Assembly (NCBI GenBank): GCA_017540815.1
Contig: JAFYAI010000144.1
Span: 67,705 to 131,704 of the forward strand
From: Spirochaetales bacterium
GTDB taxonomy: Bacteria; Spirochaetota; GWE2-31-10; MWDO01
Reading direction: 5' to 3'
Length of the DNA: 64,000 nt
Of this stretch, positions 9,042 through 42,802 are shown in pieces. A program made the translations under genes and the position numbers. Numbering within the stretch: the stretch's first letter is position 1; each line of letters begins with the position of its first letter. The notes beneath the pieces were generated by a model. The model searched no databases and had not been told where the DNA came from. It saw nothing but the letters and a program-made list of their open reading frames with translations.

Positions 9042-9087
9042 AAGCTGCTGGTCTCGGAGATACAAGAGTTGTAAAAAAAATAGGTTT

Positions 9088-9117
9088 TGCTGCACAAAAC
9101 CTATTTTTTTTACAGAA
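9088..9117. terminator. bidirectional rho-independent terminator
   Basis: aataggttttg-ctgca-caaaacctatt flanked by A-run and T-run, between convergent genes 6681..9041 (+) and 9130..10446 (-). Confidence 0.7.
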
Positions 9118-9129
9118 AATCTATTTTTT

Positions 9130-10446
9130 TTAATTATTATGAATTATGAATTGTGCATTATGAATTGCTTTCTCCACATCGCACAATTGTGCTGCTTCCG
9201 ATACGGAGATTGTTTCATAGCGGTTGTCCAGCGGATTGAAGGCATTGTCCGGCAGAAGGATTCGCACACCGAAGTCTGTCCGGAGCAAGTGATCCATATA
9301 GATCTTGAGTGAAACATCGCTGTCCAGCATCCTATCACCTGTCTTAATAACAGTCGGCTCTTTGCGGCATCGCAGTTCCAGCAATGTCTTATCAAGACTG
9401 TCATAATAACCCGTCTGTCCGAAGTATTCTGTCTCGAAGTACCCGCCGGGCACATGCGAGCGATGATTGCAGAATGAGAAGTCCTGCCCCATAAGTATCA
9501 CATTCTTAGCTCCAAGCTGCCGCACAATCCTAACAGCATTGAAAACAACGCTGCCCTCCGAACACGAGCGGATCACATCTGTCCCGGCAAAAACTTTGCG
9601 GTCGGTCTCATTCTCATAACTGAAGAATATCGGAGTAATGTTCGGCAGCCTTAGTATTGCAGGATTGATCGACAGCGGACAAATCAAAGCGGTCTCGGAT
9701 TTCAGGCCGCACAGATGATACAGCGTAGCATAGCCCGGATCAACTGCGATAACATAATCAGGCTCAATCCCGACAGAATGAAGATATTTCACCGATGACG
9801 GCAGAGCAAGAATCAGTGCCTTACTCTGCAAAGTCCTAAGCAGTTCAAGATAATCAGACAGACTTGCTCCGCTTGCCACAATCACCGCCGTGTCACAGAC
9901 ATTCTGAGGCGGCATATATGTTATATTCCCAAGCGTGCGAATGTTCCGGCCGGCATTACGCTCTTCCAGCTCGCCGAATGTGTCAGCGGCAGTCTTGGAA
10001 GCCGTAACTGTGAGGCACATATCCTTGATCTGTCCAAGCAGTTTAGCGGTATCGGCATTCTCATACGCTGATATATACGGAGTCCAGATAAGGATGTCAA
10101 TATCCGCCGCAGAGATCCCATTCTCCAGCAGAATGTTCTGAGCCTGCTGAATGGATTGCACACGACGGACAGCCGCATTCTTGGCAAACGGCTCAAAATC
10201 CGGCTCGCCACCTGACAAAACCGCCAAATCAAATGAGATAATCGTTGTGTAGCCACGCTCGGCAAGAGCATTATTAATGAAGTCTGCACCGCATATTGTA
10301 ACAGCGGCACTGTGATTGGGTTTGACATTCTGCTTCACGAATGAGTCAGCCTCGCGAAACGGGTCATAAGCAGAGTAGATAAACTTGCCGTCTAATGTGT
10401 AAGTCGGCTGCCCCTTGCGTCCGACAGTGCGAATGAATCGGCTCAT
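9130..10446 (-). CDS. DUF115 / 6-hydroxymethylpterin diphosphokinase MptE-like family protein (annotated in spirochaetes and Campylobacter as motility accessory factor)
   Basis: DTAVIVASGASLSDY...SKALILALPSS...GIEPDYVIAVDPG matches the DUF115 core (G.GPSL...PDy.i..D). Start overlaps the upstream acidic gene by 4 nt. C-terminus carries the IHNAQ..IHNN repeat element. Confidence 0.6.
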   Translation of the reverse strand: MSRFIRTVGRKGQPTYTLDGKFIYSAYDPFREADSFVKQNVKPNHSAAVTICGADFINNALAERGYTTIISFDLAVLSGGEPDFEPFAKNAAVRRVQSIQQAQNILLENGISAADIDILIWTPYISAYENADTAKLLGQIKDMCLTVTASKTAADTFGELEERNAGRNIRTLGNITYMPPQNVCDTAVIVASGASLSDYLELLRTLQSKALILALPSSVKYLHSVGIEPDYVIAVDPGYATLYHLCGLKSETALICPLSINPAILRLPNITPIFFSYENETDRKVFAGTDVIRSCSEGSVVFNAVRIVRQLGAKNVILMGQDFSFCNHRSHVPGGYFETEYFGQTGYYDSLDKTLLELRCRKEPTVIKTGDRMLDSDVSLKIYMDHLLRTDFGVRILLPDNAFNPLDNRYETISVSEAAQLCDVEKAIHNAQFIIHNN

Positions 10447-13400
10447 GAAAGTTCGGACAGCAGTGCCAGATAATCGCTCTGTGTAAATGAGTCATTAGCG
10501 GCACATTCAAAGCGGAACTCCGCAGCATTGCCGAATGCCTCTGAGAACAGCCCGACTATCTGCTCGATGATCATCTGTGTCGCAGCCTGAGCTTCTTCTT
10601 TCTCGGCATTTGGCAGAACAATGTAGAACTTATCGGGATCTGTGACCTCAACGAAACTGTCACCACCTATAATGCTCTGTGTCGTGCCTTTAATATCTTC
10701 GGCAAATGATATTAGCGAAAACTCGCCTACAGCCGCAGTTACATCTGCAGCATTGGTAAGGATCACCCTGCACAAAGACAGTGCCGCGCCGGACTCCCGC
10801 AGATCTTTCATAAATGTTGCAAGTCCTATATATTTGGCATCCAGATCATCAGGGATAGGTCGGACTTCAACAGGAGCATCTTCAGGCAGAGCCAAACCGG
10901 TATCTTCCATTATAATAGATTCGTTGTCAGTAGATTTCTCCGCTTCGCTCTCTTCGTTCGCTTCGGTCGAAATGACAGATTTCTCAACTTTTTCCAATTC
11001 TTCAGATTCTTCCTCATTATGCATTATGCATTGTGAATTATGAATTGTCTCTGATTCTTCGCAGAATGAGGATTCATCGATTATAATACTAGAATAATCA
11101 TCAGCTGCTGTCGGACTCGGTACAGGTGTGCCTGCCGCAGCAACAGGTTCTTCAGCAGAGATTGATTCTTCAGAGATTGACTCTTCTGCAGTGTCTGACT
11201 CTTCAGACGGAACATCTTCTTCTTCATCTGATGTGACTGCAGTATCCGGCTGTTCCGTTTCTTCGGCAGGCTCAACTGATGGGTTGACTTCTTCTTCAAG
11301 CTCAGCAGTATCTTCATGCTCAATTACCGATGGGATCTCAGCCTGCTCATTATCCACGGCATTATCCCATTCTGACATAAGTTCAGCAGCAAGCTCTTCT
11401 TCGGAGAAATCCGCATCATCATCTTCGATGATCTCTTCTGTATCGTCAGCAGTCTCCTGCTCCGACACTTCGTCAGACTCACTAACAGGCTCATCAATGG
11501 AAGGAACAGATTCTTCGGCAGGCTCATCCTCATTGTGCATCGTTTCTGTCACTTCGTAAGCCTCATCGGACGAGACGGACTCATTCTCATCATTGAGCAT
11601 TGTGCATTGTGCATTATTAATTGTTTCGTCCTCTTCTGCCTCATCTTCATATTCTTCACACATCACAGTGTATTGCTGATAGAGATTATACAGCATAGCA
11701 CCATTAAGTCGGCCGGCAACTTCCAAAGCACGGATGTAGTCCTCAGTAAGATCTGATGCAGAATGTGTTACAAGCATTATACCGATAATCCGCGATGAGA
11801 ATACAAACGGGATCCACAACTGGAACTCCGTCTCGGCAAAGTCTTGCTCCGACATAATATCTGCCAGTCCGCCAAACTGAGGTTCATCATTATTGACAAG
11901 GTATGATTTCTTATTGGCGAGATTGCCATATATGCCGTTATAATTAAGATCGAAAGCGAGTTTTTCCTCAGTCTCATCATCATAACCGATCTTCGCCATA
12001 CATTTAAACAACCCGTCATCCGGATCAAACAGCTGCAGACTGCATCGGTCTATCTCAAATCTGTCAGCGACACACGCTAAGAAATTGTCAAACATATTTT
12101 CATCGACGGCGATTGAAGCTGTCTGTGCAGATATATCATCAAGCACTGCCAGATAGTCATTGTATTGTTTGGAAGTACCTTCATCAGATGAAGTATTCTC
12201 ATCTGTATCTGAATTGTTCTCCTGATCTGCAAGACCGTCATCCTGATCTGCAAGACCGTCATCCTGATCTGCCAAACCGTCATCCTGAACTTGATTCAGG
12301 ATCTCATCATCAGATTTCTCCGCTTCGGTCGAAATGACAGATCCTTCGCTTCCATCAGATGAAGTGCCATCATCTGATACACCGTCAACGGATTTCTCCG
12401 CTTCGGTCGAAATGACAGATCCTTCGTTTCCATCAGATGATGAACCGGCATCACCTGACTCATCATCAGTCAGACTATCCTCTTCATTGTGCATTGTGGA
12501 TTGTGCATTATTAATTGTCTCAGGCTCATTGTCTTCACTACTATCTGACGGATAAATCCACTCGATATTCTCTTCTTCTTGATTAGCAGATTCTTCTTCA
12601 ATATCAGCAGCATTTTCGGATTCATCGTATTCATCTTCTGCAGCAGGCAGGTCTTCTACAGCCGGCAGTTCAGCCATATCGCTGTCTTCATCATCAGCAG
12701 GAACGGAGATCTCATCATCGGTTAAGTTATCAGCGTTATCCGTCTCATTATCTTCGGATTGATCGGCCGTAAGTATGCCCGTAGGCAGATCCTCATTGAC
12801 ATCCGGGGCAGGCTCATCCGTCGGAGGCAGCTGAGTAAATGACACATTATTATCAGTGAAAGTCTTCTCTGTAACCGCATCAGCATCATAAACTATAGCA
12901 TCACCTACGAAACTTGTTCCCTGTGTTACTTCTTCGATAATATTTTCATCAAACGAAGAATCCACTGCTTCGACAAACTCAGCTGTCGGAGCGGTTTCAG
13001 CATCATCATTGCCAGCTTCGTTCGCTTCGCTCGAATTGTCATCTGCTGATGAGTCGTCATCCTGAACTTGATTCAAGATCTCATCATCAGATTTCTCCGC
13101 TTCGGTCGAAATGACAGATCCTTCGTTTCCGTCAGATGATGTATCATCATTACCTGACTCATCGTCAGTCGGATTATCCTCTTCATTGTGCAGTGTGGAT
13201 TGTGCATTGTCCATTGTTTCCGACTCACCGTCACCGCCCATTTGAGCCAAGAGTGCTGCAAACGGATCATCGTCTCTCGGCAAGTCTATTATGAGGACTT
13301 CTTCTTCGTAGTCAGGCTGCTGCTCCTGAACCGAATCGCCTTCCAAAAAAAAAGTCTCTCCGTCTTTGTCTGTATCTGCTTCATCCGCATTGGGGATAAC

Positions 13401-13703
13401 TTCTGATGATGACTGACTGTCCTCAGCAGCACAGACCTGAGCCTCTATCTCGGCAAGCCGCTGACGAACAGTTTCTTCATCCGGCATAATATCGGCGACG
13501 GTCGGCTCATTAATCGGGTGGAACTCTGACGCATCTGGCAGAGGCGGCAGAACCGGCTCGCCGCCGATCTTCATCTCGGCTGCCGTTTCTGCTTTATCTT
13601 TAGAGTTCAGATAATCAAGGGCCTGTGCGAGCAGTCCCTCATTCGGTCTGTCCAAAAACTCTTCTCTGTATAACGATGCTTTGTCAAATAAACCCTTACT
13701 CAT
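10443..13703 (-). CDS. 1086-aa poly-acidic protein with a central GAF domain and a C-terminal degenerate GGDEF (GGDSF) domain
   Basis: GAF-like block at about aa 505-680 (nt ~11660-12190). C-terminus ...AALSLCRVILTNAAD...IGGDSFVEVTDPDKFYIVLPNAEKEEA... aligns to the GGDEF core with the signature degraded. Remaining ~700 aa are D/E/S/T/N-rich with internal repeats. Confidence 0.7.
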   Translation of the reverse strand: MSKGLFDKASLYREEFLDRPNEGLLAQALDYLNSKDKAETAAEMKIGGEPVLPPLPDASEFHPINEPTVADIMPDEETVRQRLAEIEAQVCAAEDSQSSSEVIPNADEADTDKDGETFFLEGDSVQEQQPDYEEEVLIIDLPRDDDPFAALLAQMGGDGESETMDNAQSTLHNEEDNPTDDESGNDDTSSDGNEGSVISTEAEKSDDEILNQVQDDDSSADDNSSEANEAGNDDAETAPTAEFVEAVDSSFDENIIEEVTQGTSFVGDAIVYDADAVTEKTFTDNNVSFTQLPPTDEPAPDVNEDLPTGILTADQSEDNETDNADNLTDDEISVPADDEDSDMAELPAVEDLPAAEDEYDESENAADIEEESANQEEENIEWIYPSDSSEDNEPETINNAQSTMHNEEDSLTDDESGDAGSSSDGNEGSVISTEAEKSVDGVSDDGTSSDGSEGSVISTEAEKSDDEILNQVQDDGLADQDDGLADQDDGLADQENNSDTDENTSSDEGTSKQYNDYLAVLDDISAQTASIAVDENMFDNFLACVADRFEIDRCSLQLFDPDDGLFKCMAKIGYDDETEEKLAFDLNYNGIYGNLANKKSYLVNNDEPQFGGLADIMSEQDFAETEFQLWIPFVFSSRIIGIMLVTHSASDLTEDYIRALEVAGRLNGAMLYNLYQQYTVMCEEYEDEAEEDETINNAQCTMLNDENESVSSDEAYEVTETMHNEDEPAEESVPSIDEPVSESDEVSEQETADDTEEIIEDDDADFSEEELAAELMSEWDNAVDNEQAEIPSVIEHEDTAELEEEVNPSVEPAEETEQPDTAVTSDEEEDVPSEESDTAEESISEESISAEEPVAAAGTPVPSPTAADDYSSIIIDESSFCEESETIHNSQCIMHNEEESEELEKVEKSVISTEANEESEAEKSTDNESIIMEDTGLALPEDAPVEVRPIPDDLDAKYIGLATFMKDLRESGAALSLCRVILTNAADVTAAVGEFSLISFAEDIKGTTQSIIGGDSFVEVTDPDKFYIVLPNAEKEEAQAATQMIIEQIVGLFSEAFGNAAEFRFECAANDSFTQSDYLALLSELS
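12226..12290. repeat. 21-bp in-frame tandem repeat x3 (gatctgcaagaccgtcatcct), encoding DDGLADQ x3
   Basis: Seen directly inside the 10443..13703 CDS. Confidence 0.8.
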
Positions 13704-13765: not shown

Positions 13766-16402
13766 TCAATGTTTAATGTCAAGCTGCTCAAACAATCGTC
13801 TGTATGCCTCAAATTCTTTCGATTCAGCGAATTCTTTGATCTTCTCCTCCGGCAATGCTCCCATCAGCGAGTCAAGACAAGTCAGGACATTCTTAATGTC
13901 TTCCTTAAGCTCAGTGTCAGTCTCACCTGCAGGTGCAGCCTCTTCGTCATTAGCTGAGTCCTCATTCTGCAGCGAATCAAATATCTGATTAGTCTCTTCT
14001 TCGGAGATGTCGATCTTAGTATCTTCCGCATCGTCATCAATGTCAGCAACGGACTCCTCGCCGGCTACATCTTCGATACAACCAAGGTCAGCAATGCCGT
14101 CTGCCGGCTCTAAGTCAGCCTCGAAACTTGCCAAATCTATAGTCTCACTCTCATCTTCAGTATTCTGATCAGCAGCACTTATGTCTGCATCATCCAAGTT
14201 CATATCAGCAGCAGCATCAGGCTCAAGGCTTGTCTCCAATGTGTCAGTCTCCAATGCGGCATCATCAATGCTGTCAGCCATATCTGCACCTACATCAATA
14301 TCAGACAAAGTGTCATCCGATGCAGGAACAACTATAGCCTGCTCTGAGAGTTCTTCGGCATTATCGCTGCTGTCGCCTATGATCTTCGTATCATCAGCGG
14401 CATCTTCAGTATTGTCAATAATGCTGCCATTATCATCGACATTCTCATAGAGATCAAGGTCTCCGTTAGTCATGATGTTGTTATCCACGACGGACTCTTC
14501 TGTCGTCTCATTATCTGCTGAGATGTCTGTCTCACCCGGGATAGTCACAGATGCGGCAAGCTCCTCATCCGATAAGAACTCATCGTCATTCTCAAATGAC
14601 GGATCATCAGGAATATTGATTGACTCGGCAAGCTCCTCATCTGTCGGCGGAATATCCACATCCACCATCTCAGTCTCGGACATATCGGCATCTACAAGGA
14701 TATTATCCAACTCATCACCGGACAGTCCGATAGTCTCATCTTCATCTTCATCATCAAATGTCGTCGGTGCAGGAATATCATCTACATCGAGATCATCGAG
14801 ACTGCCGACATCACCCGGCATCTCATCAGTTATAATATCTGACTCATCCGCAGTTTCTTCAGTCAGAACATCAGCGTCTGTTATATCTTCCAATGTATCA
14901 GGCAGTTCCTCATCGAGGCTGATCTCTGTATCATCAGCAGCTGCATCTTCGCTAAGTGTGTCAGCTGCAGTATTGTCATCATCTGCAATCTCTGCACTGT
15001 CAAGGTCGATGCCAAGATCCTCATCACCGTCAAGTGCTATCCTGTCATCTTCATCATCATTGTCTGCAGGCTCTTCTATAGATGCTGCCAATGCCTCGTC
15101 AACGACGACATCACCTGCCAGCGTTGCTTCTGTAAGTTCCTCGTCCTGAGCCTCTGTCTCACTGTCTGCCGGCATCGACTCTTCCAAAGCAGTAAGATCA
15201 TCATCGCTGATCAGATTGCTGTCTGCAGCACCAACCGAACTCAGATCCTCGATAGTATCATCGAAACCTTCCAATTCATCTGCAACGGAATTATCCGTAT
15301 CACTGTCTTCTATATCTGTCAGAGCATCCTGTTCTTCTGTTTCATCAGGCTCATTAGTATCAGCAAAACTGTCACTGTCAGATCCAATATCAATATCAGC
15401 CAAAATATCTTCTGACTCGTCCGACAGGAATGCGTTCTGTTCTTCATCTACGACAAGTTCATCTTCATGCGGCATAGGGATATTAAGCATCTTACCGCTG
15501 TCGTCCCCGGTCTGCTCCAGCACATCATCAATGTCAATGTCAGACAGAGCGTCATCCTGCTCTACATCAAACTCAAGATCATCATCAGAAGTAATATCAT
15601 AATGCTCATTATCGTCTGTTTCCTCACTCTCAGTATCTGATGCTTCTTCCAAACCAATATCTGACAATTCATCAAGGCCTTCAAGATCATCCGCCGTATC
15701 AGCAGCATCATTGTCACTGTCATCCGTGTCATCAGCCAAGTCGGTCTCTTCTTCAAGTATGTCATCACCATCTGACAGATCCGCATCACCGAAGTCGCCA
15801 AAATCATCATCTGATGATATTTCATTATCTGTATTATTTTCAGGCTCTACCACCTGTGTAAATGCTATCGTTACAGGACCGATCTTAAGATCTACGCCAT
15901 ACGCATCATCATCGTCATCATCTGACTCGTCATCATCATAAGCATCGCTGTCGAAGTTAGCTATATCTTCATCGCTAATATCTGGTGTGATCGGAGCCGA
16001 CTCAACATCATCGTCTAAACCAGCCTCTAATGACAGATCCAGATCATCATCAGTCAGATCCTCTCCAGCTTCAGTCGGTTCCCCTGTTGTATCAATGGCA
16101 TCAGGATAATCCACAATGTCATTGTCAGACATATCTGACTCTATCGGAGCGACATCACCGGATACGGCTGCATCATTATCCGATTCCACACCGGAATAAT
16201 CCAGATTATCGAGATTATCCAAGTCATCGGCTGACGGATTATCTTCATCCGGCATCACATCATCGAGATTCAGGTCAAGATCAGTGTCAAGGTCAAAGTT
16301 ATCCAAGTCATCAAGACCCGATAATGTGTCTTCATCATGCAGAAGTGTCTCGGATTCCAGTCCGTCCAAACCTAAATCATTATATTTTTCATTTGCAGCC
16401 AT
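13766..16402 (-). CDS. 878-aa poly-acidic low-complexity protein with a short helical C-terminal tail
   Basis: Continuous ORF, very D/E/L/S-rich (DDLDNLDNLD...). GGAGCA RBS before ATG 16402. Same strand and immediately upstream of the GAF/GGDSF acidic protein. Confidence 0.65.
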   Translation of the reverse strand: MAANEKYNDLGLDGLESETLLHDEDTLSGLDDLDNFDLDTDLDLNLDDVMPDEDNPSADDLDNLDNLDYSGVESDNDAAVSGDVAPIESDMSDNDIVDYPDAIDTTGEPTEAGEDLTDDDLDLSLEAGLDDDVESAPITPDISDEDIANFDSDAYDDDESDDDDDDAYGVDLKIGPVTIAFTQVVEPENNTDNEISSDDDFGDFGDADLSDGDDILEEETDLADDTDDSDNDAADTADDLEGLDELSDIGLEEASDTESEETDDNEHYDITSDDDLEFDVEQDDALSDIDIDDVLEQTGDDSGKMLNIPMPHEDELVVDEEQNAFLSDESEDILADIDIGSDSDSFADTNEPDETEEQDALTDIEDSDTDNSVADELEGFDDTIEDLSSVGAADSNLISDDDLTALEESMPADSETEAQDEELTEATLAGDVVVDEALAASIEEPADNDDEDDRIALDGDEDLGIDLDSAEIADDDNTAADTLSEDAAADDTEISLDEELPDTLEDITDADVLTEETADESDIITDEMPGDVGSLDDLDVDDIPAPTTFDDEDEDETIGLSGDELDNILVDADMSETEMVDVDIPPTDEELAESINIPDDPSFENDDEFLSDEELAASVTIPGETDISADNETTEESVVDNNIMTNGDLDLYENVDDNGSIIDNTEDAADDTKIIGDSSDNAEELSEQAIVVPASDDTLSDIDVGADMADSIDDAALETDTLETSLEPDAAADMNLDDADISAADQNTEDESETIDLASFEADLEPADGIADLGCIEDVAGEESVADIDDDAEDTKIDISEEETNQIFDSLQNEDSANDEEAAPAGETDTELKEDIKNVLTCLDSLMGALPEEKIKEFAESKEFEAYRRLFEQLDIKH

Positions 16403-16972: not shown

Positions 16973-17065
16973 CTTTTACACCTTTGTTTGCTGCGATTAT
17001 CGCATAAGTTTACACTGTTTTATCGTCCTGCATAATATTAAAACTGTAATATTTTATCTTTTTTT

Positions 17066-17983
17066 TTATAATATTTGCTTTCTTAACTCACTGACGCTGA
17101 TAATATTCTGACAAAAACTGGCTATCTCACTAGCCAATATCTGTTTAACGCGGTCATCATCTACAACGACTGTGACATTCTTCCGTATCTTTTGATCCAG
17201 TTCTCCGCCGAATGCACATATCTGCATAGCAAGCTCATACTTTGCTTTCATATCCGCATTCTTAGGCAGCATAATGTGATAATGCTGTCCGTGCAGTTTA
17301 TCTTCCTTAATAATATGACGAACTCTGCACAGCTGCTTTATCTTCATGCGGTATTCCTTCGCTGCACGGGACTGCTTCTTCTGTGACAAATATCTGCCGG
17401 TATCTATGACAGTCCTTTCTGCTGCCTTAATCGCTTCCGCCAAAGACAGCCGATACTCCGCACAGAATCCTCTCAGCACAAACATCGTCATCTTAGCATC
17501 GTCGGCACTGTTATGAGCGGTGAGTTTGCTCATATTCACATCAAACCTCTGAGCCCATTTAACCAGCTTCATATCCTCATCTACCTTCGTATGCAGTATG
17601 CTGACCAGATCATAGATCTGCGTCCTCGGCAGCTCGGTCTCGTATCTGCGGCAGGTATAGTCAAGGAAACCTATGTCATTCTTCGGAGCAAATCCTATAA
17701 TACGCCCGCTGTGTTCTGTCATCAGCTGATATATCTTAGGATAGTAATGCGGGAACTTCGGCGATGACAAGAACTTCTGCTTAGGATATGAGAGACTCAC
17801 ATCTATCTTCTTGGAGAAAAATGCCCAATCAAACTTACTCTCCGGATTCATAACGAGATCGTCACATTCTATAATATTAAACCGCTCGTCACAGATCACA
17901 TATCCGAATGAACAAATCTTGCCCTCACCGCCGAAACAGTTGGCACATTCAATATCGAAAAATAAATATTCATTATCTGTCAT
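17066..17983 (-). CDS. DEDDh-type 3'-5' exonuclease (DnaQ-like fold)
   Basis: Exo I FFDIE, Exo II-like DIGFLDY, Exo III H-x4-D (HNSADDA). Start overlaps the upstream adenylate cyclase stop by 4 nt. Confidence 0.7.
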   Translation of the reverse strand: MTDNEYLFFDIECANCFGGEGKICSFGYVICDERFNIIECDDLVMNPESKFDWAFFSKKIDVSLSYPKQKFLSSPKFPHYYPKIYQLMTEHSGRIIGFAPKNDIGFLDYTCRRYETELPRTQIYDLVSILHTKVDEDMKLVKWAQRFDVNMSKLTAHNSADDAKMTMFVLRGFCAEYRLSLAEAIKAAERTVIDTGRYLSQKKQSRAAKEYRMKIKQLCRVRHIIKEDKLHGQHYHIMLPKNADMKAKYELAMQICAFGGELDQKIRKNVTVVVDDDRVKQILASEIASFCQNIISVSELRKQIL

Positions 17984-19851
17984 ACCATATTCACCGTATA
18001 TATTACTTCATTCTTATTTTCATCATCGAGCCGTATCGTGTCAAGTGCCGACAGCTTATACTTATCAGACAAGCCATACTGATCTGCGAATGTCTGACTC
18101 ACTATGATTGGCTGCTTATACTTCTTAGTCAGGGCTTCAAGACGCAACACAGTATTGACTGCACCGGAGATTGTCAGTCCTGTCATCCTGTCTTCCTCAC
18201 CGACAGTCATCAGCACTACCTCTCCGTAGTGAATACCTATCCCAATGCGGAATGTATCATTGTCCCGCAGATGGAACTCATTGTTTAACTCCGATACTGC
18301 TTTCTGAATAGCGATCGCACATTCGGCAGCTCGCACTCCGTCATTAGGGAACAGAACTATAATGCCGTCACCGAGATATTTCTCGATGAATCCGCCGTGA
18401 TCACGGATAATCGGACCTATCGTTGACAGGTATTTATTCAGCACATCGAATACTTCATCTTCGGAGAGCTTCTCACTCATTACAGTGAAGTCGCGCACAT
18501 CTGCCGACATTATTGCCAGCGACTTGGTGCTGCGATCGTCAAGCTGCACATCGGTGATATTGTCCTTACCGAGCAGAGTCAGGAACTCTTTCGGCACAAA
18601 TCTATAATAGATCTCATTCGTCTGAGTTAAGTTATCAGACATCTTCCTAATCCTCTTCATACTGTCTTCGCGGTTTTTGGCAGTGATATATGACTGAGCA
18701 GCAACGAATATCAAAGCCGAATACGGCAGGAGCATAACTGTCGGGAATGGCACAGGAATATAATTGAATGTAGCCATATCATGTGCTCCAAAGAGGAATA
18801 TCATCAATGTCGTTAAAGCCATCATCAGTCCGGTATCGACACGGCCTTTCTGGAAACTCAGTCTGAACTGTGCAGAGATCATCGCAATGGAACTAATCAC
18901 AAAATCAACCTGCAATATCGGCACAAGCCTGCTGATAAAACTTATCTCTCCGAGCCATACAAGCACACCAAATACAGAATTAATAATAAATGTATAAATA
19001 TCACTCTTATATGGGAACTTATCCGCTCCGTACAGATAACGAACATACATCGCATAGCATGCAGGGCAGAGGAACAATGCTGTATATTCCATTTTAAGAC
19101 ACAATATATATGGCACCTGCGGAAAATAAAACTTTAGAATAGAGAACCCTTGCACAATGATCCGCATTGCTATGCCAAGACTGAACAGTGATAAGAAAAG
19201 ACTGACCTTATCATCCGGCTGTGTCAGATAAAATATAAAATGGAAGAACATTATAAAAAACAACATACCGAGGAAGATAAATCTCCTGTTTACATCTCGG
19301 ATGAAGTTCCGCTGCATAACATTACGCTCTCCGAAACGGATATTGCCCCAGATACCGCCTTTGCGATGGAAGTTATTGGACACATGCAGAATAAGGTCTA
19401 TGCAGCCATCACTGTCGCAGAACATATCGACTAACTTCATACTCTGATCACCTTCAGCCTGAGTCCAATCCTCATTAGGCTTGCCGACAGTGATGAGGAG
19501 TTCCCCGTTAGCATACAGATTAAACGATGTTCCTATCGCATCATATAAGAATAATGTATACTGGATGGACGGGTTCAAACCGTCTATCTGCAACCGAAAT
19601 GTACCGCAGCCAAGCCCGTTAGGGAAGTAAGCATTCCATACACACGGAGGAGTAACTGTATCATCAGCAGTCTGGTCATCAATATCCTCAGGCGAGATGA
19701 ACCGTCCCTGATAAAACTCCCACGGCACATTCAGCATAATCCTCTTAGACTTGAGTTCTTCATGCGAAGGAGCATGGAACACCTCAGCGTGCAAAGCGGC
19801 TGATATGAAAAGCATAATGAATATTACATGCAGGCCCTTATCAATTAGCAA
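17980..19851 (-). CDS. class III adenylate/guanylate cyclase with 7TMR-DISM periplasmic and membrane sensor domains
   Basis: Signal peptide plus about 200-aa exodomain, 7 TM helices, C-terminal CHD (FRIGIGIHYGEVVLMTVGEE...). Confidence 0.85.
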   Translation of the reverse strand: MLIDKGLHVIFIMLFISAALHAEVFHAPSHEELKSKRIMLNVPWEFYQGRFISPEDIDDQTADDTVTPPCVWNAYFPNGLGCGTFRLQIDGLNPSIQYTLFLYDAIGTSFNLYANGELLITVGKPNEDWTQAEGDQSMKLVDMFCDSDGCIDLILHVSNNFHRKGGIWGNIRFGERNVMQRNFIRDVNRRFIFLGMLFFIMFFHFIFYLTQPDDKVSLFLSLFSLGIAMRIIVQGFSILKFYFPQVPYILCLKMEYTALFLCPACYAMYVRYLYGADKFPYKSDIYTFIINSVFGVLVWLGEISFISRLVPILQVDFVISSIAMISAQFRLSFQKGRVDTGLMMALTTLMIFLFGAHDMATFNYIPVPFPTVMLLPYSALIFVAAQSYITAKNREDSMKRIRKMSDNLTQTNEIYYRFVPKEFLTLLGKDNITDVQLDDRSTKSLAIMSADVRDFTVMSEKLSEDEVFDVLNKYLSTIGPIIRDHGGFIEKYLGDGIIVLFPNDGVRAAECAIAIQKAVSELNNEFHLRDNDTFRIGIGIHYGEVVLMTVGEEDRMTGLTISGAVNTVLRLEALTKKYKQPIIVSQTFADQYGLSDKYKLSALDTIRLDDENKNEVIYTVNMV

Positions 19852-19860
19852 ATATTGCTC

Positions 19861-22800
19861 CTACATCACTCTGTATATGTGCATCAGACCTTTGCCTTTG
19901 ATCTCCTGCTCTTCCTGACCGATGAGATTTGCTTCATCTTTGATAAGATCGTATGTCATCTGACTGACAGTGATCAGTCCTTCTTTGCCGTAGTGTTCCA
20001 TACGGCTGGCAGTATTGACTGTATCCCCCCATATATCATAGATAAACTTAGTCTTGCCGATAACACCTGCAGTAATAGTTCCTGAGCTGATACCGATACG
20101 CATACCAACTTTCATCTCGGCTGTCTCATTGTATTCTTTAATATCATTAAGCATACCTCTCGCGAACTCAAGCAACACTAAGGCATGCTTAGGATTTGCT
20201 TCAGGCACACCGCACGCAGCCATATAGCAGTCTCCGATAGTCTTGATCTTCTCTACACCCATATTCTCTGCACGCAGGTCAAATCTGGTAAACAAGTCAT
20301 TGAGATACAGAACAAGTTCGTGCGGAGTGCATGTACTGGACAGTTTGGTGAATCCTACAATGTCTGCAAACAGAACTGATGTTTCCGCAAATGAGTCTGC
20401 TATGATCTCCTCTGTATCTTTGAGCTGATCTGCAATCGGACGCGGCAGTATATTGAGCAGCAGAGCCTCTGACTTGTCTTTCTCTATCTGCAGATCCTTG
20501 GTCCTTTCATCAACGACTCTCTCAAGATACAGCTGCTGTTTCTTCATGCGGCTCATCCTCACTACATAGAACAATGCGAACAGTCCGGCTGCAGTCAAGA
20601 CACACAGGATAGCGAACCAAATAGTCTGGTAAAAATACACCTGCTTAACAAATGTGATCTGAGCCGGTGCAGTACTCCATACGCCGTCTCCATTGACGGT
20701 GCTGACAGAGAATGTATATTTACCGGCAGGCAGGTTAGTATATGATACCTGACGCTGAGATGTAACTTTGGATGCGGTTGTATCGAACCCGATCAGCTGA
20801 TATTTGAAGCCTACTCTCTCCAACGAAACATAACTAAGACCTACAAAATCAATCGTAATACGGTTGGCATTCGCAGGTATATCTATCTTGCTGTCATAAG
20901 GATTGAATGTCTGCTCCTCAGTGCTGATCTTCTCTATATACACAAGCGGCGGCACAGAACTTAGACTGGCTGACGGATTATACGAAGTAAAGCCTGTCGC
21001 CATCGGAAACCACAAACACCCCCGTGAATCCATACAGCTAAGCGATGTGCTTGTCAGTCCGCTTGGGAATAATCCGTCATTCTTATTGTATAATTTGGTC
21101 TCCAGCATTATATTCCTGCCTTCAGCGATCATATCCAGCTGCACAGCAGGCACAGAACATAAGCCGGAGTTGGTAACAAACCACGCCATGTCATTCTGAT
21201 CAAACAATATCTGGAATATCGAATCTGCCGGCAATCCTGCAGCCATATTGAATGTAACAAAATGATCGGCATTAAGATCATATTTGGTTACACCTGAGCC
21301 TGTACAGATCCAATAGCTGCCTTTCTTATCCTGCATTATCTTAAATATAACATTGCCGGCAAGCCCCTTATCCGTATCTATTACATCAAATATTTTACCG
21401 TCACGGATCAGATTAACACCGCCGCCGTCAGTGCCAACCCACAGGACATGATTATTATCCTCATACAGACACATTATGAAATCATTAGTCAGTCCGTCTA
21501 TCTTAGTCATCACTTCAATCTTCTCCACAATAAATGATGACGGATTATTGGGATCTTGTCGCCTCGTCAGGATATTGAGACCTTTTGCGGTTCCGACTGC
21601 GATTCGTCCGTCATGAAGTTCCAATGCTACACGGCATCTGTCTATCGACAGACCGTTCTTGCTGGATATGCTCTTGATATTGCCGTCTTTGATAAATACG
21701 ACACCCGCATCTGAATATGTAGACACCATCAGAGTGCCGTCCTTGCTCCATGCAAGATCACGAATACGCCTGTGCTTGAAATACTCTACAATCTCATTGT
21801 TAAGCAGTTTGCCGTTATAACAGATCAGACCGCTGTCTGTTCCTATAAAGAATCTCCCCCTGCTTGTATCTTCCGTAATGCAATTAACGGCAGACTCTGT
21901 AGGTATGGAATGAAATCTGACCTTAGTCAGTTTCTCTATACCGCCGAGGTTTGTTCCTATCCAGATATTGTCCTCTCTGTCTTTGAATATCTTCAATATC
22001 GAGTTATTGATGAGACCTTCATTCTCAGTATAATACTCCACATGTCCGCCGAATGAAACATAGATAATACCGGTCTGTGTTCCAATCCAGATATTCTTGT
22101 TATCATCTTCCATAAATGTATTTATCTCGGACTGACTGATAAATCCTTCCTGTCCTACATACTGCTGCAGATGTATATCAGCATCATCAGCAAATAATTC
22201 AGTAGTCTTGATCCTATAGACGCTGTTATTTCGCAGACCAAACCACATATACCCCATTGAATCTTGGAATACTATCGAAGCGATAACTCCCTGCAGAAAT
22301 TTCGGTTTATATATCTTAAATGCTCCATCCCGTTTGGTATATCGATATACATTGCCGGCTGTAGTCGTTGCCCATATAGATCCGTATATATCACAATACA
22401 GCCGAACTATTGTAGCATCCTGCAGTCCGTTATATTCCAGTCCTCCTATCCTGGACAGATTGTTATTGGTATCATAGACTACGACACCGTTGGATGTACC
22501 TATCCATATATCTCCGTTGTTGCCTTCGATAATGCTCCGGATAGACTTGCTCGGCAGATCTTCATTGATTAATGTCAGGCTGCTTCGCTGTGCATTCTGA
22601 TATGCCAATCCTTCATCATTGCTGCCTATCCATAATCGTCGCTTGGAGTCCTCCATTACAACACGAGCAGATATGAATGGTGACACTTTAGAAGTATTTC
22701 TGTTAAGGACAGAAAACTTTACTCCATCGAACTTAATAAGTCCTGCATAAGACCCCATGTATATATATCCCAGATAGTCCTGCACCATCGATGTTATCGT

Positions 22801-22929
22801 ATTAGTTGGCAGCCCGTCATCACTTGACCATCGGCGGGAAACATACTCCGACAGGAAACTCTCCTGTGCATATACCATCCCGATACACAGCATCATAACT
22901 GTAATAAGTCCGAGTTTAATCTTTTTCAT
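19861..22929 (-). CDS. class III adenylate cyclase fused to a periplasmic two-component-regulator propeller / Y_Y_Y sensor
   Basis: Signal peptide, repeated WIGT/W.GT propeller blades, one TM helix, then CHD (VLFADIVGFT...IKTIGDCYMAA...GDTVNTASRME). Confidence 0.85.
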   Translation of the reverse strand: MKKIKLGLITVMMLCIGMVYAQESFLSEYVSRRWSSDDGLPTNTITSMVQDYLGYIYMGSYAGLIKFDGVKFSVLNRNTSKVSPFISARVVMEDSKRRLWIGSNDEGLAYQNAQRSSLTLINEDLPSKSIRSIIEGNNGDIWIGTSNGVVVYDTNNNLSRIGGLEYNGLQDATIVRLYCDIYGSIWATTTAGNVYRYTKRDGAFKIYKPKFLQGVIASIVFQDSMGYMWFGLRNNSVYRIKTTELFADDADIHLQQYVGQEGFISQSEINTFMEDDNKNIWIGTQTGIIYVSFGGHVEYYTENEGLINNSILKIFKDREDNIWIGTNLGGIEKLTKVRFHSIPTESAVNCITEDTSRGRFFIGTDSGLICYNGKLLNNEIVEYFKHRRIRDLAWSKDGTLMVSTYSDAGVVFIKDGNIKSISSKNGLSIDRCRVALELHDGRIAVGTAKGLNILTRRQDPNNPSSFIVEKIEVMTKIDGLTNDFIMCLYEDNNHVLWVGTDGGGVNLIRDGKIFDVIDTDKGLAGNVIFKIMQDKKGSYWICTGSGVTKYDLNADHFVTFNMAAGLPADSIFQILFDQNDMAWFVTNSGLCSVPAVQLDMIAEGRNIMLETKLYNKNDGLFPSGLTSTSLSCMDSRGCLWFPMATGFTSYNPSASLSSVPPLVYIEKISTEEQTFNPYDSKIDIPANANRITIDFVGLSYVSLERVGFKYQLIGFDTTASKVTSQRQVSYTNLPAGKYTFSVSTVNGDGVWSTAPAQITFVKQVYFYQTIWFAILCVLTAAGLFALFYVVRMSRMKKQQLYLERVVDERTKDLQIEKDKSEALLLNILPRPIADQLKDTEEIIADSFAETSVLFADIVGFTKLSSTCTPHELVLYLNDLFTRFDLRAENMGVEKIKTIGDCYMAACGVPEANPKHALVLLEFARGMLNDIKEYNETAEMKVGMRIGISSGTITAGVIGKTKFIYDIWGDTVNTASRMEHYGKEGLITVSQMTYDLIKDEANLIGQEEQEIKGKGLMHIYRVM

Positions 22930-23047
22930 ACAATGTTACTCCATCTATGTCATCCCAAACCTGCTTTGGGATCTCCTCACAAAAAATGCCAAAACAGCAT
23001 TGCATAACGCTTCCTTGCGGCGGCGGAAGTTCAGCCCCAAAATATTA

Positions 23048-24937
23048 TCATACTCTATACTCCGACAGCAGCAAAGGCATAGCCTTGCCCTTAACCCTGA
23101 TCTCTCCCAACGGATAATACCTGTCCTTGTCAGCTGCCGATGTCTTGGAGACGATAGTCTCGGAGACTACAACCGAGAGTTTCTGCTTCTCTGCATAACT
23201 CTCTATCCTGGATGCAGTATTGACCGTATCGGATATAACCGTATCATCAAGGCGATGCTCCTCTCCTATCATGCCGAGTATCATCTTACCGTAATGAACT
23301 CCTATACCGATTCGGAGCAGGCACTTCCCCTCTGCTTTCCGTTCCTTATTCACTTCATCCAATGCTCTGACTATATTTTCACAGCATTCTATCGCATCCT
23401 CCGGATTATTGGGGAACAATGCCATAAACCCCTGTGAAATAAACTTGCTGACGAAGCCTCTGCAGTCAACAATCTGCAGCGAAACTCTGTGAAAAAACCT
23501 GCTCAAAGTCTGAGTCTTTTCTTCTTCATCGATCTCTTGACAGCCCTCGTAAAACTCGAAAGACATCTGCGAGAATACTATACTCATCTCTACATCGACA
23601 TGATTGCCAAGATGAACATCATTAAGCAGGTTCTTCACATTGAGCAGTCTGAGGAATTCTCTCGGTACAAAACGAACACAGGCTTCGTTGAGTTCTTCCA
23701 ACTCTGCGACAAGAGCCTTATGTCGGGCAAACATTCTGCTCTGCTCCAACGAGATGCAGACAAACTGAAATATGGCAAACAACATCATCGCATACGGCAT
23801 CACCATAATCGGCGATATTATCCTAATCTCAGTAATAATAATATCAGCAGTCCCTGCTACAAGCAGGATGATAATATCCACCAATAATATCACTACTTTT
23901 CGGCTGCGATACCGCAGTCCCTGCAGCACAACTATCAATAAAAAAACCATTGTGCAGAACGAATACAGAAGCAGCCCCTGCACAAACAGATTGGCGATCT
24001 GTATCGGCAGCAAAGTTGTACAAATACCCAATACAGCTCCTATCGTTCCGACAACACGGAATACAGCCTTCCAGTAACGGAACTGCGGGAACTCTCCCCG
24101 ACAAAACAATACAAAAAACGACGGACTCGCCCACAGCGTAAAATACTCCACCTTATACAACACAGTAAAGGGTACACCGGGGATTATCATTGCTGAGATC
24201 GGACAGTCAGCCACGAATATACGCAGTGCTATCGTCAGAACAAATAAAGCAAAGAACCAGGTCGCTTTGTTTTTCTTATTCATTAAGAACAGCATAAAGT
24301 TATACAATGCCAGCACAAACAGGTTAGCACAAAAGTATAATCTCTCTCCTACCACACGGCAAAACTCCTTATATACACATTCTGCTTCCCCAAACCTGAC
24401 TGCGTCTGTCATACCGCCTTTGCGGTAGTTGTGATTAGACACTTGGAATATCAGTTCCAGATTACCCTCTGTATCAGAAAAAACTTCCTCATAAAATGGC
24501 TGTCTCCCGGCTTTAGCCTTAGTCAGATCTTCTCTGACTGTTCCTATACTTTTGACAAGTTCGCCATTGCAGTATATATTAGCCGCAGTCCTCGGAGAGT
24601 CTTTCATATAGAATGCGTATTTACACGACGGCTTAAGCTTAGTAATATACATCCGATAAGTACAAACAGCTCTAACAGAATGCTTATGCTTATGAAGAAC
24701 AGCATCCCATGTGCCGGGCACAGTAATATACGCATCAGGCGGCTGTATCCACACATCCTCTACTGTCGGCAGCATCTTATCTATATACAGCTGCCAAGTT
24801 CCGCTTAGATACATAGGTCTGTGACCAAGCCGACGATTATCCTTGACAGAGAGTGTCCCGTACTTCACCTGAGAATGTGCGAAACAGGTCAGACATAAAA
24901 ATAAAACAGCCAATAGCGGAATGCGAACTCTACACAT
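23048..24937 (-). CDS. class III adenylate cyclase with 7TMR-DISM sensor domains (second paralogue)
   Basis: Same architecture as 17980..19851. CHD motif LRIGIGVHYGKMILGMIGEE...DTVNTASRIE. Confidence 0.85.
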   Translation of the reverse strand: MCRVRIPLLAVLFLCLTCFAHSQVKYGTLSVKDNRRLGHRPMYLSGTWQLYIDKMLPTVEDVWIQPPDAYITVPGTWDAVLHKHKHSVRAVCTYRMYITKLKPSCKYAFYMKDSPRTAANIYCNGELVKSIGTVREDLTKAKAGRQPFYEEVFSDTEGNLELIFQVSNHNYRKGGMTDAVRFGEAECVYKEFCRVVGERLYFCANLFVLALYNFMLFLMNKKNKATWFFALFVLTIALRIFVADCPISAMIIPGVPFTVLYKVEYFTLWASPSFFVLFCRGEFPQFRYWKAVFRVVGTIGAVLGICTTLLPIQIANLFVQGLLLYSFCTMVFLLIVVLQGLRYRSRKVVILLVDIIILLVAGTADIIITEIRIISPIMVMPYAMMLFAIFQFVCISLEQSRMFARHKALVAELEELNEACVRFVPREFLRLLNVKNLLNDVHLGNHVDVEMSIVFSQMSFEFYEGCQEIDEEEKTQTLSRFFHRVSLQIVDCRGFVSKFISQGFMALFPNNPEDAIECCENIVRALDEVNKERKAEGKCLLRIGIGVHYGKMILGMIGEEHRLDDTVISDTVNTASRIESYAEKQKLSVVVSETIVSKTSAADKDRYYPLGEIRVKGKAMPLLLSEYRV

Positions 24938-27196: not shown

Positions 27197-27589
27197 ATGA
27201 TACTTACACTGAAAAAAGGCGGCATAGTCGTTCGGCAGGGCGACACCAAAGACAGAAATCTCTACATCATTCACAAAGGTGCATTCACCGTTCAGCGAGT
27301 AAGCGGCGACACTGTGATTAACTGCGGCACACTGCACGAAGGCGACATCTTCGGTGAAATGTCAATGATACTCGGACTCTCCAGAAGCTCTACCATTATG
27401 GCGACAACCGACGAAGCGGAAGTTGAGAGCCTAAGCAAACAGTCATTCCTTGACCTGATACAGAAGCAGCCGGAGATTGCATGGAAAGTCCTCACCAACC
27501 TCGCTCTGAAAACTCAGCGTCTCGACGAAGTGCAGAGCCAATTAAACGATCCTGAGAGTCTTAAGATGATATTGGCTGCGAAGAGATGA
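27197..27589 (+). CDS. stand-alone cyclic-nucleotide-binding (CAP-effector) domain protein, 130 aa
   Basis: cNMP-binding signature ...GDIFGEMSMILG...RSSTIMA. No DNA-binding domain. RBS AAGGAG. Confidence 0.75.
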   Translation: MILTLKKGGIVVRQGDTKDRNLYIIHKGAFTVQRVSGDTVINCGTLHEGDIFGEMSMILGLSRSSTIMATTDEAEVESLSKQSFLDLIQKQPEIAWKVLTNLALKTQRLDEVQSQLNDPESLKMILAAKR

Positions 27590-27716
27590 ATTAATTCATA
27601 ATGCATAATTAACTTGCGATGAAAGCCCTGAAAAACATGAATGGGCTCAATATACTATTGACGATTTTTTGATTGATTGACCGCCGGAGAAGTTTCAATA
27701 ATTCATATTTAGTAAT

Positions 27717-36448: not shown

Positions 36449-37843
36449 CTACTTTATTGCCCAATGTCCCGTCTTTTTAGAACCTTCTCGCTCTATAATT
36501 CCTTTTTCACGAAGTGATTTTATTGCTCTGCTGACTGTCGGCATTGAAAATCTTGTAAGCCATGCTATTTCATCGGTTTTAATTAAAGGATTCTTTTTTA
36601 TTTCTTCCAAAACAGCGTTCTCTGATTCCGAAAGATTTAATCTATCATTTATTCTATCATTTATTCTATCAATACTGTCATTTAATCTATCATTTAATTT
36701 ATCATCATTACAATTTAATCTGTCATCTATCAGATTATTTTTTTCTGAATCAAAGAAAAATACCACATGAAAGAAGTTTGGCGAGATGTGGAAAATGTCA
36801 GGTTTATAGACATTCATCATGCGATTCATGCCACTGCCTAGTTGCTCCACAAATTCGGCATCTTTGAATACTCTCATTAATTCACGGTTTCGTGGGCGAG
36901 AAATACCACTTGTAAGTTCCTCTTGTGTCATACCATCTATAAGACCGCCGTAATTGGTAATTTCAAGACGGTCACTGAACAACTCAAAAACAGGTGTCAT
37001 CAAATCTGTATAATCGTTATGGACAAAGGCGTTAATGACCGCTTCTCTCATAGCGACAGAATCATACATTTGCTTTTCTATACGAAATTTATCTGTAATC
37101 TTTGTAAAGGTCTTATTTTCAATGCGAAGTTTGTCCAAAACTCTGTCTGTTGCCTTCAAAAGGGAACAATAACCGAGTTCTTCATTTTCAATTAAGTCCA
37201 CTTTATTTGTTCCTGCATATTTCGCAAATTTGATAGAAACACCATTTTCATCAGCCAGCAGATAAGCAAGAATGTTGTATTTTCCGTTAGGCGTATAAAA
37301 TTCAAGTGTCTTTGCAAATTCGGCATTCAGATTCTTTCCATGTTCCTCATAATAAATCCGCAACTGATTGAAAGTTAAATCCTGACGAGGTGCTTCAATT
37401 ACACGCAAGTTGCATCTTGTTCTGCGTGCAAAAAGATTTTCAATCATTTGTACCGAAAGGCTTTGCGTTTGACTTCCGATGCGTATAAAACAGCCATCGG
37501 GAGTCATTCCTTTTTGCTTTAAGTAATATGGCTTTTCGGTACCGCTTGAAACAATGACTTTGATATAGTACAGCGGATTTTTATCGTAAGTTTGTTCAAG
37601 AATTACATCGTATAAGCCTAAAGTTTCAGGAGCAATGTTGTTTTTAATTCTATCCGCAATTTGCAGTTGAACTTCATCGGGTTTTTCAACACCAATAATT
37701 TCACCATCATCGTTTACCCCAATGTAAATCGTGCCACCAGTGGAACTATTGAGCAATGCTACAATACTACGCTCAAAACGGTCGTTCAATATAAGTTTGT
37801 ACTCATAAAATTTTGATTCTGGATTTAGAATATGCTTGCTCAT
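36449..37843 (-). CDS. Schlafen/AlbA_2 + HATPase_c_4 + C-terminal wHTH protein (often annotated as putative transcriptional regulator or RecG-related ATP-binding protein)
   Basis: AlbA_2 signature VALLNSSTGGTIYIGVNDDGEIIGV. HATPase_c_4 block REAVINAFVHNDYTD...LEITNYGGL. C-terminal PTVSRAIKSLREKGII. Confidence 0.75.
   Translation of the reverse strand: MSKHILNPESKFYEYKLILNDRFERSIVALLNSSTGGTIYIGVNDDGEIIGVEKPDEVQLQIADRIKNNIAPETLGLYDVILEQTYDKNPLYYIKVIVSSGTEKPYYLKQKGMTPDGCFIRIGSQTQSLSVQMIENLFARRTRCNLRVIEAPRQDLTFNQLRIYYEEHGKNLNAEFAKTLEFYTPNGKYNILAYLLADENGVSIKFAKYAGTNKVDLIENEELGYCSLLKATDRVLDKLRIENKTFTKITDKFRIEKQMYDSVAMREAVINAFVHNDYTDLMTPVFELFSDRLEITNYGGLIDGMTQEELTSGISRPRNRELMRVFKDAEFVEQLGSGMNRMMNVYKPDIFHISPNFFHVVFFFDSEKNNLIDDRLNCNDDKLNDRLNDSIDRINDRINDRLNLSESENAVLEEIKKNPLIKTDEIAWLTRFSMPTVSRAIKSLREKGIIEREGSKKTGHWAIK
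36634..36733. repeat. 12-bp tandem repeat (about 7-8 units, consensus atttattctatc / atttaatctatc) inside the Schlafen-like CDS, encoding (DRLN/DRIN)n
   Basis: Seen directly. All units are multiples of 3 nt and therefore in-frame. Confidence 0.8.
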
Positions 37844-41507: not shown

Positions 41508-41530
41508 AGAATGCTCCTAATATAATTATA

Positions 41531-41567
41531 AAAAGATAAAAAAATCAAAGACTTTTTTATCTTTTTA
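41531..41567 (-). terminator. rho-independent terminator after the second FGE-like gene
   Basis: aaaaagataaaaaa-tcaaagac-ttttttatcttttt hairpin with flanking U-tract. Confidence 0.6.
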
Positions 41568-41575
41568 TAATTGAT

Positions 41576-41600
41576 CATTGCTCACTGCACATTGCCCATT
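41576..41600. repeat. 25-bp direct repeat copy 1 (cattgctcactgcacattgcccatt)
   Basis: 24/25 identical to 42770..42794. The two copies bracket the second FGE-like gene. Confidence 0.75.
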
Positions 41601-41604
41601 GCCC

Positions 41605-42462: not shown

Positions 42463-42726
42463 TGAATTATCCTTCCTTTTTGTAGAATTTGTATTTATAT
42501 TATATTTTACACGAAATATGAGAATAATTCAATAAAAATCAGGATTTTTATCTTTTTTGTAGATTTTTTTGCAATAATGATGTGATTATGTCTTGGAATT
42601 TCAAGCATATTGTCAATATTAACACCATAAAAGGAATAAAAGTCCTGACAACAATGGAAGGATATAAAGATATATTGATTTATTCACCGGAAGCGTTCCA
42701 AATTGATAAGGAGGATAATGATGAAA

Positions 42727-42766
42727 ACAAAATAGATTTTGCTTCGCAAAATCTATTTTGTTTTAC
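42727..42766 (-). terminator. rho-independent terminator downstream of carB
   Basis: aaaatagatttt-gcttcgc-aaaatctatttt perfect 12-bp stem followed by a U-run on the minus strand. Confidence 0.65.
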
Positions 42767-42769
42767 AAT

Positions 42770-42794: not shown

Positions 42795-42802
42795 AAAATC
42801 AG

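Follow-up and report, generated by a model that had tools for sequence, protein, structure and literature searches.

The question raised by this locus is whether a short sequence shared by two adjacent genes of an uncultured Spirochaetales bacterium from the rumen is a protein motif kept for its own sake or the by-product of a repeat residing in the DNA. The stretch concerned (hereafter, the window) comprises 64,000 nt of contig JAFYAI010000144.1 (assembly GCA_017540815.1; GTDB lineage Bacteria; Spirochaetota; GWE2-31-10; MWDO01), positions 67,705 to 131,704 of the forward strand. The shared sequence turned out to be a tandem array of a 7-nt unit, represented in the window by eight arrays, part of which are translated and part of which lie outside genes. 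The favoured explanation, which we consider probable, is a tolerated, slowly changing heptanucleotide repeat, the peptide product of which has no function of its own.

Heptamer Arrays in the Window

An earlier note, made from the letters of the window alone, described a recurrent coding element of about 30 nt at five sites. All five are present at the coordinates given there, as revealed by a pattern scan and by Tandem Repeats Finder, but the element is actually a 7-nt unit in tandem, with 4-5 imperfect copies per site. The unit reads MATTRTG on the plus strand and A-Y-A-A-T-K-M on the coding (minus) strand, e.g., ACAATGC, ATAATGC, or ACAATTC. Overall, the 64 kb contain eight arrays, distributed over five loci: three lie between genes, one runs across a stop codon, and four reside in a single acidic protein. 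The two host genes and the arrays, together with a short version of the latter, are as follows (ORF, open reading frame):

DUF115 host gene, 9130-10446, minus strand: 438-aa MptE-like/DUF115 protein, related to the flagellin-modification protein PseD.
Acidic host gene, 10443-13703, minus strand: 1086 aa, with 28% Asp+Glu overall and 33-37% in two array-holding linkers.
Array A1, 9134-9168, minus strand: five units (GCAATTC ATAATGC ACAATTC ATAATTC ATAATAA), encoding the C-terminal 12 residues of the DUF115 protein.
Array A2, 11014-11048, minus strand: five units in the acidic ORF, encoding TIHNSQCIMHNE.
Array A3, 11590-11624, minus strand: five units in the acidic ORF, just past the GAF-like block, encoding TINNAQCTMLND.
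Array A4, 12484-12518, minus strand: five units in the acidic ORF, within the duplicated module 12385-12533, encoding TINNAQSTMHNE.
Array A5, 13183-13217, minus strand: five units in the acidic ORF, within the duplicated module 13084-13232, encoding TMDNAQSTLHNE.
Short version, 11528-11545, minus strand: about two units (ACGATGC ACAATGA), encoding ETMHNE.
Array A6, 27590-27612, plus strand: about three units (ATTAATTCATAATGCATAATTAA), non-coding.
Array A7, 41568-41602, minus strand: five units (GCAATGG GCAATGT GCAGTGA GCAATGA TCAATTA), non-coding.
Array A8, 42769-42796, minus strand: four units (TTAATGA GCAATGT GCAGTGA GCAATTA), non-coding.

Tandem Repeats Finder placed the period-7 arrays of the coding sites at 9136-9166, 11015-11046, 11591-11615, 12485-12509, and 13184-13217; these five, as well as 41576-41604, displayed 3.6-4.9 copies with 81-94% matches. 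The degenerate three-unit pattern MATTRTGMATTRTGMATT, scanned with at most two mismatches tolerated, gave 16 overlapping matches in the window, whereas 100 dinucleotide-preserving shuffles gave 0.25 on average and never more than 2; a CAATG-spaced pattern yielded 23 matches vs. 3.9 expected. Single CAYAATK words outside the arrays were not over-represented in the window (30 vs. 24 on the plus strand and 16 vs. 19 on the minus strand, by order-2 Markov expectation). Tandem Repeats Finder detected no second 7-nt repeat family of similar size in the window, and a further 5.1 kb of the source contig contained no array.

Translation of the Arrays

All five coding arrays are read in frame on the minus strand and share one codon phase. 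Hence, the in-frame reading which the earlier note ascribed to its five sites holds, while the consensus peptide it derived from them is only approximate: the four copies in the acidic ORF translate as ETMDNAQSTLHNEED, ETINNAQSTMHNEED, ETINNAQCTMLNDEN, and ETIHNSQCIMHNEEE, and the DUF115 ORF (9130-10446) ends with KAIHNAQFIIHNN, followed by the stop. Translated across three frames, the repeated unit ACAATGC yields T-M-H-N-A-Q-C, and its antisense gives A-L-C-I-V-H-C. Since three units make 21 nt, i.e., exactly seven codons, the apparent motif ET(I/M)xN(A/S)Q(C/S)(T/I)MHNEE is a translated DNA repeat.

The variation among the copies conforms to this interpretation. Of the seven positions of the heptamer, 3 and 5 are invariant in the 25 coding units, 1 varies twice, and 4 varies once; positions 2, 6, and 7 account for nearly all differences. 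The differences from the consensus track the position in the heptamer (chi-square p=1.2e-5), not the position in the codon (p=0.44). Together with the 7-nt period running through three frames and the existence of non-coding copies, this upholds the suggestion of a DNA-level unit as opposed to a convergent protein motif.

At the same time, the proteins seem to have set limits on the repeat. The third unit is ACAAT in every coding array, while T-containing units are common at the second, fourth, and fifth positions; ATAAT as the third unit would create an in-frame TAA. Likewise, the antisense A-L-C-I-V-H-C would suit poorly the linkers with 33-37% Asp+Glu. The stop-free third unit and the properties of the antisense reading suggest that selection filtered the orientation and phase of the arrays according to what the protein can tolerate.

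A synthetic query of 49 residues representing the repeat peptide, searched against 5.8 billion proteins, retrieved only 54 ORFs of 32-86 aa, none of which has a precomputed Pfam domain. These short ORFs are probably spurious calls over arrays. Their small number, short length, and lack of domains indicate that translation of an array inside a large, real protein is uncommon.

Non-Coding Arrays, Stop Codons, and Terminator Hairpins

The element had been thought of as a feature of two genes, but the three further arrays, A6, A7, and A8, are all non-coding. Array A6 begins immediately after the TGA stop of the ORF 27197-27589 on the plus strand, which encodes a small stand-alone cNMP-binding protein; A7 begins 2 nt past the TGA that ends the FGE-sulfatase gene (41605-42462), and A8 begins 6 nt past the TAA stop of carB (42803-45982). 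Array A1, in turn, continues into the TAA stop of the DUF115 gene at 9130-9132. Arrays A7 and A8 share an identical 19-nt string including the deviant unit GCAGTGA, and A8 is shorter by one unit. By this identity and the difference of exactly one unit, they are copies of one another that have since come to differ by a single 7-nt step.

Arrays A1, A7, and A8, the latter two being two of the three non-coding arrays, are each situated just upstream of a long A/U-rich hairpin:

A1 terminator hairpin, 9070-9114, minus strand: 20-pair stem directly downstream of A1.
A7 hairpin, A/U-rich, 41524-41572, minus strand: 23-pair stem immediately 3' of A7, the 96-nt stretch scoring z = -4.45.
A8 hairpin, A/U-rich, 42724-42764, minus strand: 19-pair stem directly downstream of A8, with arms AAAATAGATTTTG resembling those of the A1 terminator.

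For the arrays themselves, no structure is predicted, and they fold no better than shuffled sequences (z = +0.5 for A3 and -2.1 for A2); and there is no Rfam match at the gathering score in the window. As to the hairpins, those of A1 and A8 (9070-9126 and 42724-42764, minus strand) share the arms AAAATAGRTTTTG with a paired G/A-C/T difference; that of A1 has an extra half copy as well, and the 12-mer occurs nowhere else in the window. An array and a terminator might form one composite repeat (mobile) unit, a possibility which rests on these two similar hairpins.

Host Genes and Intragenic Duplication

The acidic and DUF115 genes adjoin each other with a 4-nt overlap and, judging from this arrangement, are probably co-expressed. 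The acidic protein features weak GAF-like and GGDEF-like blocks (E=0.013 and E=0.093, respectively); both matches are below the Pfam cut-offs, so the label "GAF/GGDSF" given to it earlier is not established. Its acidic linkers holding the arrays are probably disordered.

It was also proposed that the element had spread by intragenic duplication, and this applies to a part of the set only. Arrays A4 and A5 (12484-12518 and 13183-13217) both lie within a 149-nt duplication. A motif SV(I/S)S(T/D)EA follows each of A2-A5 at a distance of 4 to 22 residues, and sharing this downstream motif makes A2-A5 look like copies of one ancestral module. The two-unit ETMHNE version is exactly three units (21 nt, seven residues) shorter than the five-unit arrays, three units being the minimum change by which the frame is preserved.

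Other repeats are present in the acidic gene as well. A second intragenic repeat, (G)SVISTEAEKS (GATTTCTCCGCTTCGGTCGAAATGACAGA on the plus strand), is present in five minus-strand copies at 10927-10985, 12307-12345, 12385-12423, 13016-13041, and 13084-13122, and it is retained almost base for base in the orthologue L123. A near-perfect 21-nt tandem repeat (x3.3) at 12220-12288 on the minus strand encodes DGLADQD; it is not found in the orthologues L123 and L135. The adjacent gene (13766-16402, minus strand) codes for a still more acidic 878-aa protein (37% Asp+Glu) with no Pfam or NCBIfam match, the L135 orthologue of which is recorded with PF27359 (TP_0179), a family named for Treponema pallidum.

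Turnover of the Arrays Among Relatives

The strain polymorphism predicted by the earlier note was found in the DUF115 tails, in the acidic gene, and in A7. In the near-identical assembly L002 (99.6% identity, the same organism), A1-A3 are unchanged; there is a 42-nt in-frame indel in the neighbouring repeat at 10941-10985, and the contig breaks off at 12356, within the 96-nt repeat family D1.

The tails of the DUF115 proteins form an allelic series. Members with at least 84% identity end with KAIHNAQFIIHNN, KKIHNAQCIIHN, KKIHNAQCIMDN, KVIRNAELR, or the array-free NKKISTKKRFF, and the alleles possess 5 (window), about 4.5 (L123, L135), about 3 (L134), or 0 (L124) units before the terminator. 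The tails of P0197, P0198, and P0201 are array-free, and among the 14 listed members of the cluster there is one truncated variant, P0194, which has 174 aa and an aberrant end. When reference genomes were scanned with the DUF115 protein, the sole match was an unrelated Trueperaceae contig.

In the acidic gene, neither of the sister alleles, L123 and L135, has A3 or A5; for A3, two alignments disagree on the insertion boundary. Array A2 is base-for-base identical in L135, and L123 has a non-repeat stretch of about 40 nt in its place. Conversely, L123 harbors an array of its own, EEMHNAECVMRNEED (units GCGTAAT), where L135 has a one-unit version only; one-unit versions comparable to the short one at 11528-11545 are present in L123 and L135 (EEMYNEE, AVHNEED). 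Hence, the suggestion of a conserved linear peptide motif did not withstand the comparison, the motif being missing from orthologous positions in close relatives.

Outside the genes, A7 is kept in the same-species contig L125 with two substitutions: one converts CAATG to TAATG, which still fits the unit, and the other is located just 5' of the first unit. It is absent from the divergent allele L126 (ENA ERZ27256870 k141_2360075). The latter is a mosaic with respect to window positions 41605-42840: upstream of the FGE-sulfatase gene it matches the window exactly, A8 included, and the FGE-sulfatase itself, lacking A7, has 81% protein identity to the window copy and is 13 residues longer. Overall, the allele patterns point to recombination between strains combined with local changes in units and rule out a conserved peptide motif.

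Similar Arrays Elsewhere and Known Heptanucleotide Repeats

A metagenome scan with the five-unit pattern YAATKNN matched over 120 contigs, in which the units are of many types; CAYAATK-type units are present in about twenty of these contigs. No relatives of the window were among these 120 matches, which show only that heptamer arrays are widespread. The scan also recovered arrays of CAATGAC units, which contain, on the other strand, TTGGTCA, presumably the STRR2 unit. The rumen Bacteroidota contig L128 carries (CACAATT)5(CACAATG)6 and three other heptamer arrays in 20 kb. The L128 arrays (10046-10124, 12407-12454, 17045-17097, and 17120-17453) are intergenic and built of different units, including (ACTAACC)x48, and two of the four begin within about 25 nt of the stop codon of the upstream gene. 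According to the earlier note, occurrence at unrelated intergenic sites would signify a generic repeat family, and such a family, extending to other phyla, is what the arrays represent.

A perfect (ATGCACA)8 array was found on the Yersinia pseudotuberculosis plasmid NZ_CP033716.1 (L127 3148-3204), between yopK and sopA. Judging by translation, it looks like it lies in a remnant of an insertion-sequence transposase, in a place where the record has no annotation. BLAST pieces and match lengths suggest that the copy number of (ATGCACA)n differs among pYV/pCD1 plasmids. The plasmid array resembles those of the window in its heptamer, its MHNAQC reading, and its variable length, as well as in having grown from a natural two-unit stretch; in contrast, it is a single perfect array of eight units and not a dispersed family.

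Heptanucleotides reportedly outnumber every other class of long simple-sequence repeats in many bacterial genomes; they occur near gene ends and are occasionally read through, and a slippage origin has been proposed for them with no function established (PMC4679880, PMC4692102). As far as the repeats of Mrazek et al. 2007 are summarized in these sources, they likewise occupy many sites per genome, mostly outside genes, and vary between relatives (PMC4679880, PMC4692102). The arrays described here differ from that account in being short (3-5 units), imperfect, half translated in real proteins, and hosted by a member of Spirochaetales; whether they count as "long" in the statistical sense was judged within the 64-kb window.

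Several known families offer closer comparisons. The TAACTGA repeats of marine Beggiatoaceae, Cyanobacteria, and Bacteroidetes have 2-6 copies, some of which overlap upstream stop codons, and their reverse copies are read through near protein ends as the 7-residue repeat LSVISYQ (PMC4679880). Hence, they share with the present arrays the location at stop codons, the read-through, and the occurrence of one unit in unrelated phyla; at the same time, their unit is different and not readable on the forward strand, unlike ACAATGC, and they are situated mainly just upstream of start codons, whereas the arrays here follow stops and precede terminators (PMC4679880). The cyanobacterial STRR of Calothrix/Nostoc, as outlined in PMC4692102, are also families of tandem heptamers dispersed in non-coding DNA, but with other units, in another phylum, and in arrays that are usually longer and perfect. 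The GGGAATC/GGGGAYT repeats of Xanthomonas and Nostoc form intergenic arrays, sometimes in inverted pairs, varying in length and sequence between close relatives; they are G-rich and quadruplex-forming, in contrast to the A/T-rich units without predicted structure found here (PMC4692102). The tandem unit, the excess over composition, the recurrence at unlinked sites, and the variation between strains were all observed for this family, and it is a further case of the known, poorly understood bacterial heptanucleotide simple-sequence repeats.

Origin and Possible Roles of the Arrays

According to the favoured explanation, the arrays would arise and change at the DNA level by slippage of units, copying between sites, and recombination between strains, and they would persist only where the genome tolerates them. 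Two kinds of tolerated places were seen: the short spacer after a stop codon (before the terminator hairpin, if present) and the acidic, probably disordered linkers plus a C-terminal protein tail. Inside the acidic gene, the array was then multiplied as a part of a larger module via intragenic duplication. The arrays would add fast-changing variation of length and sequence to linkers and tails.

A number of observations weigh against this explanation. No change in unit number was seen between the two 99.6%-identical assemblies, so the change is slow in comparison with classic microsatellites. The arrays are imperfect, with no more than 2-3 identical adjacent units, and hence a poor substrate for slippage; at A2, about 40 nt have been replaced between L123 and L135 rather than simply inserted, which slippage alone does not explain. 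A purely neutral model predicts neither that all eight arrays lie on the coding strand of the neighbouring gene nor that the four gene-end arrays begin within about 8 nt of the stop. Since A2-A5 form one set and A7/A8 have a common ancestry, only about five placements are independent (A1, A2-A5, A6, A7, A8). Similar arrays in the contigs of other organisms are of mixed orientation.

In the main alternative, the arrays would be recognition sites for a sequence-specific RNA- (or DNA-)binding protein tuning mRNA stability, termination, or translation, that is, single-stranded CAAUG-type repeats between the stop codon and the terminator and within one long mRNA. We regard this as unlikely, although it accommodates the coding-strand location of 8/8 arrays relative to the adjacent gene (A6, on the opposite DNA strand, being no exception), the gene-end arrays lying at the stop or 0-8 nt past it and upstream of a hairpin where there is one, and the predicted lack of structure. 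It also fits with A.AAT being (nearly) invariant while other positions of the unit vary, and with the substitutions in the L125 copy of A7, which either preserve the fit to the unit or fall 5' of the first unit; a comparable proposal was made for the TAACTGA repeats (PMC4679880). Still, at one and the same gene end, very close strains either have or lack an array, the placements are as few as noted above, there is no Rfam family match in the window, and no candidate binding protein was identified. In other contigs, roughly 17 placements at coding-strand tails are offset by 13 others; this mixed result, derived from crude ORF calls, does not decide the question of strand bias. Two other binding-site readings were dropped as well: a Fur-box-like one of the CATAAT units, in view of the spacing of 7 nt, not 6, and an Hfq (A-R-N) one, in view of an unfit triplet pattern. 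A bolder version, according to which CAYAATK arrays constitute a cross-phylum functional platform after stops and before terminators with a dedicated binding protein or copying mechanism, is more doubtful still, and equally so are its corollaries, i.e., horizontal spread between rumen Spirochaetales and Bacteroidota and in-gene copies acting as sites of action in a long mRNA.

Two protein-level alternatives carry very little weight. The view that ETIxNAQCxMHNEE is a functional short linear motif, such as a His/Cys/Met metal site or a shared docking site, draws on the single frame and similar acidic flanks of the coding copies, on the metal-ligand character of His, Cys, and Met, and on the adjacency, 4-nt overlap, and probable co-expression of the host genes. 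It is largely refuted: Cys and His are not kept (S replaces C in two copies, and D, N, or L replaces H), the differences follow heptamer and not codon position, the same DNA is found outside genes, orthologues of 84-95% identity either lack the motif at the same sites or have it elsewhere, and the search of 5.8 billion proteins returned only the 54 domain-less ORFs mentioned above. Equally remote is a contingency (phase-variation) locus, in which the gain or loss of a 7-nt unit would shift the frame and switch the acidic protein or the Maf-like DUF115 enzyme. The maf genes of Campylobacter (a DUF115 family) are phase-variable via homopolymer tracts; the unit length here is no multiple of three, and the DUF115 tail varies in length between strains. 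Such a locus would be marked by a perfect tract switching the frame or the spacing of a promoter within a strain, but the tracts found are imperfect and short, the near-identical assemblies show no length change, and the protein core is in frame in every observed allele, tail variants altering only the last 10-13 residues or so; none of the three full-length alleles of the acidic gene is frameshifted.

Other Features of the Window

Tandem repeats of other periods and several signaling genes were recorded in the rest of the window:

41365-41492, minus strand: 18-nt and 21-nt tandem repeats at the 5' end of ORF 40179-41507, encoding DNxHNTDFDII-type repeats.
36635-36726: 12-nt tandem repeat ATTTAATCTATC x6 with higher-order periods of 33 and 45 nt, in the C-terminal part of the Schlafen/AlbA_2-HTH ORF 36449-37843.
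17980-24937, minus strand: three consecutive adenylate/guanylate cyclase-domain genes, two of the 7TMR-DISM type and one of the Reg_prop/Y_Y_Y type.

Significance of the Findings

The case of this locus demonstrates that an apparent peptide motif shared by two proteins can be a translated DNA microsatellite, and recognizing it as such guards against false annotation of motifs and domains. It adds an example from Spirochaetales to the little-studied heptanucleotide repeats of bacteria, with several unusual traits: the in-frame translation inside a large acidic protein, an array which supplies the C-terminus of an enzyme and runs into its stop codon, and a series of alleles ranging from 0 to 5 units across rumen populations in nature. 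Finally, the tight placement of the non-coding copies after stop codons, with a terminator coming next in two of the three, provides a concrete hint as to whether repeats of this whole class have a role at the RNA level.

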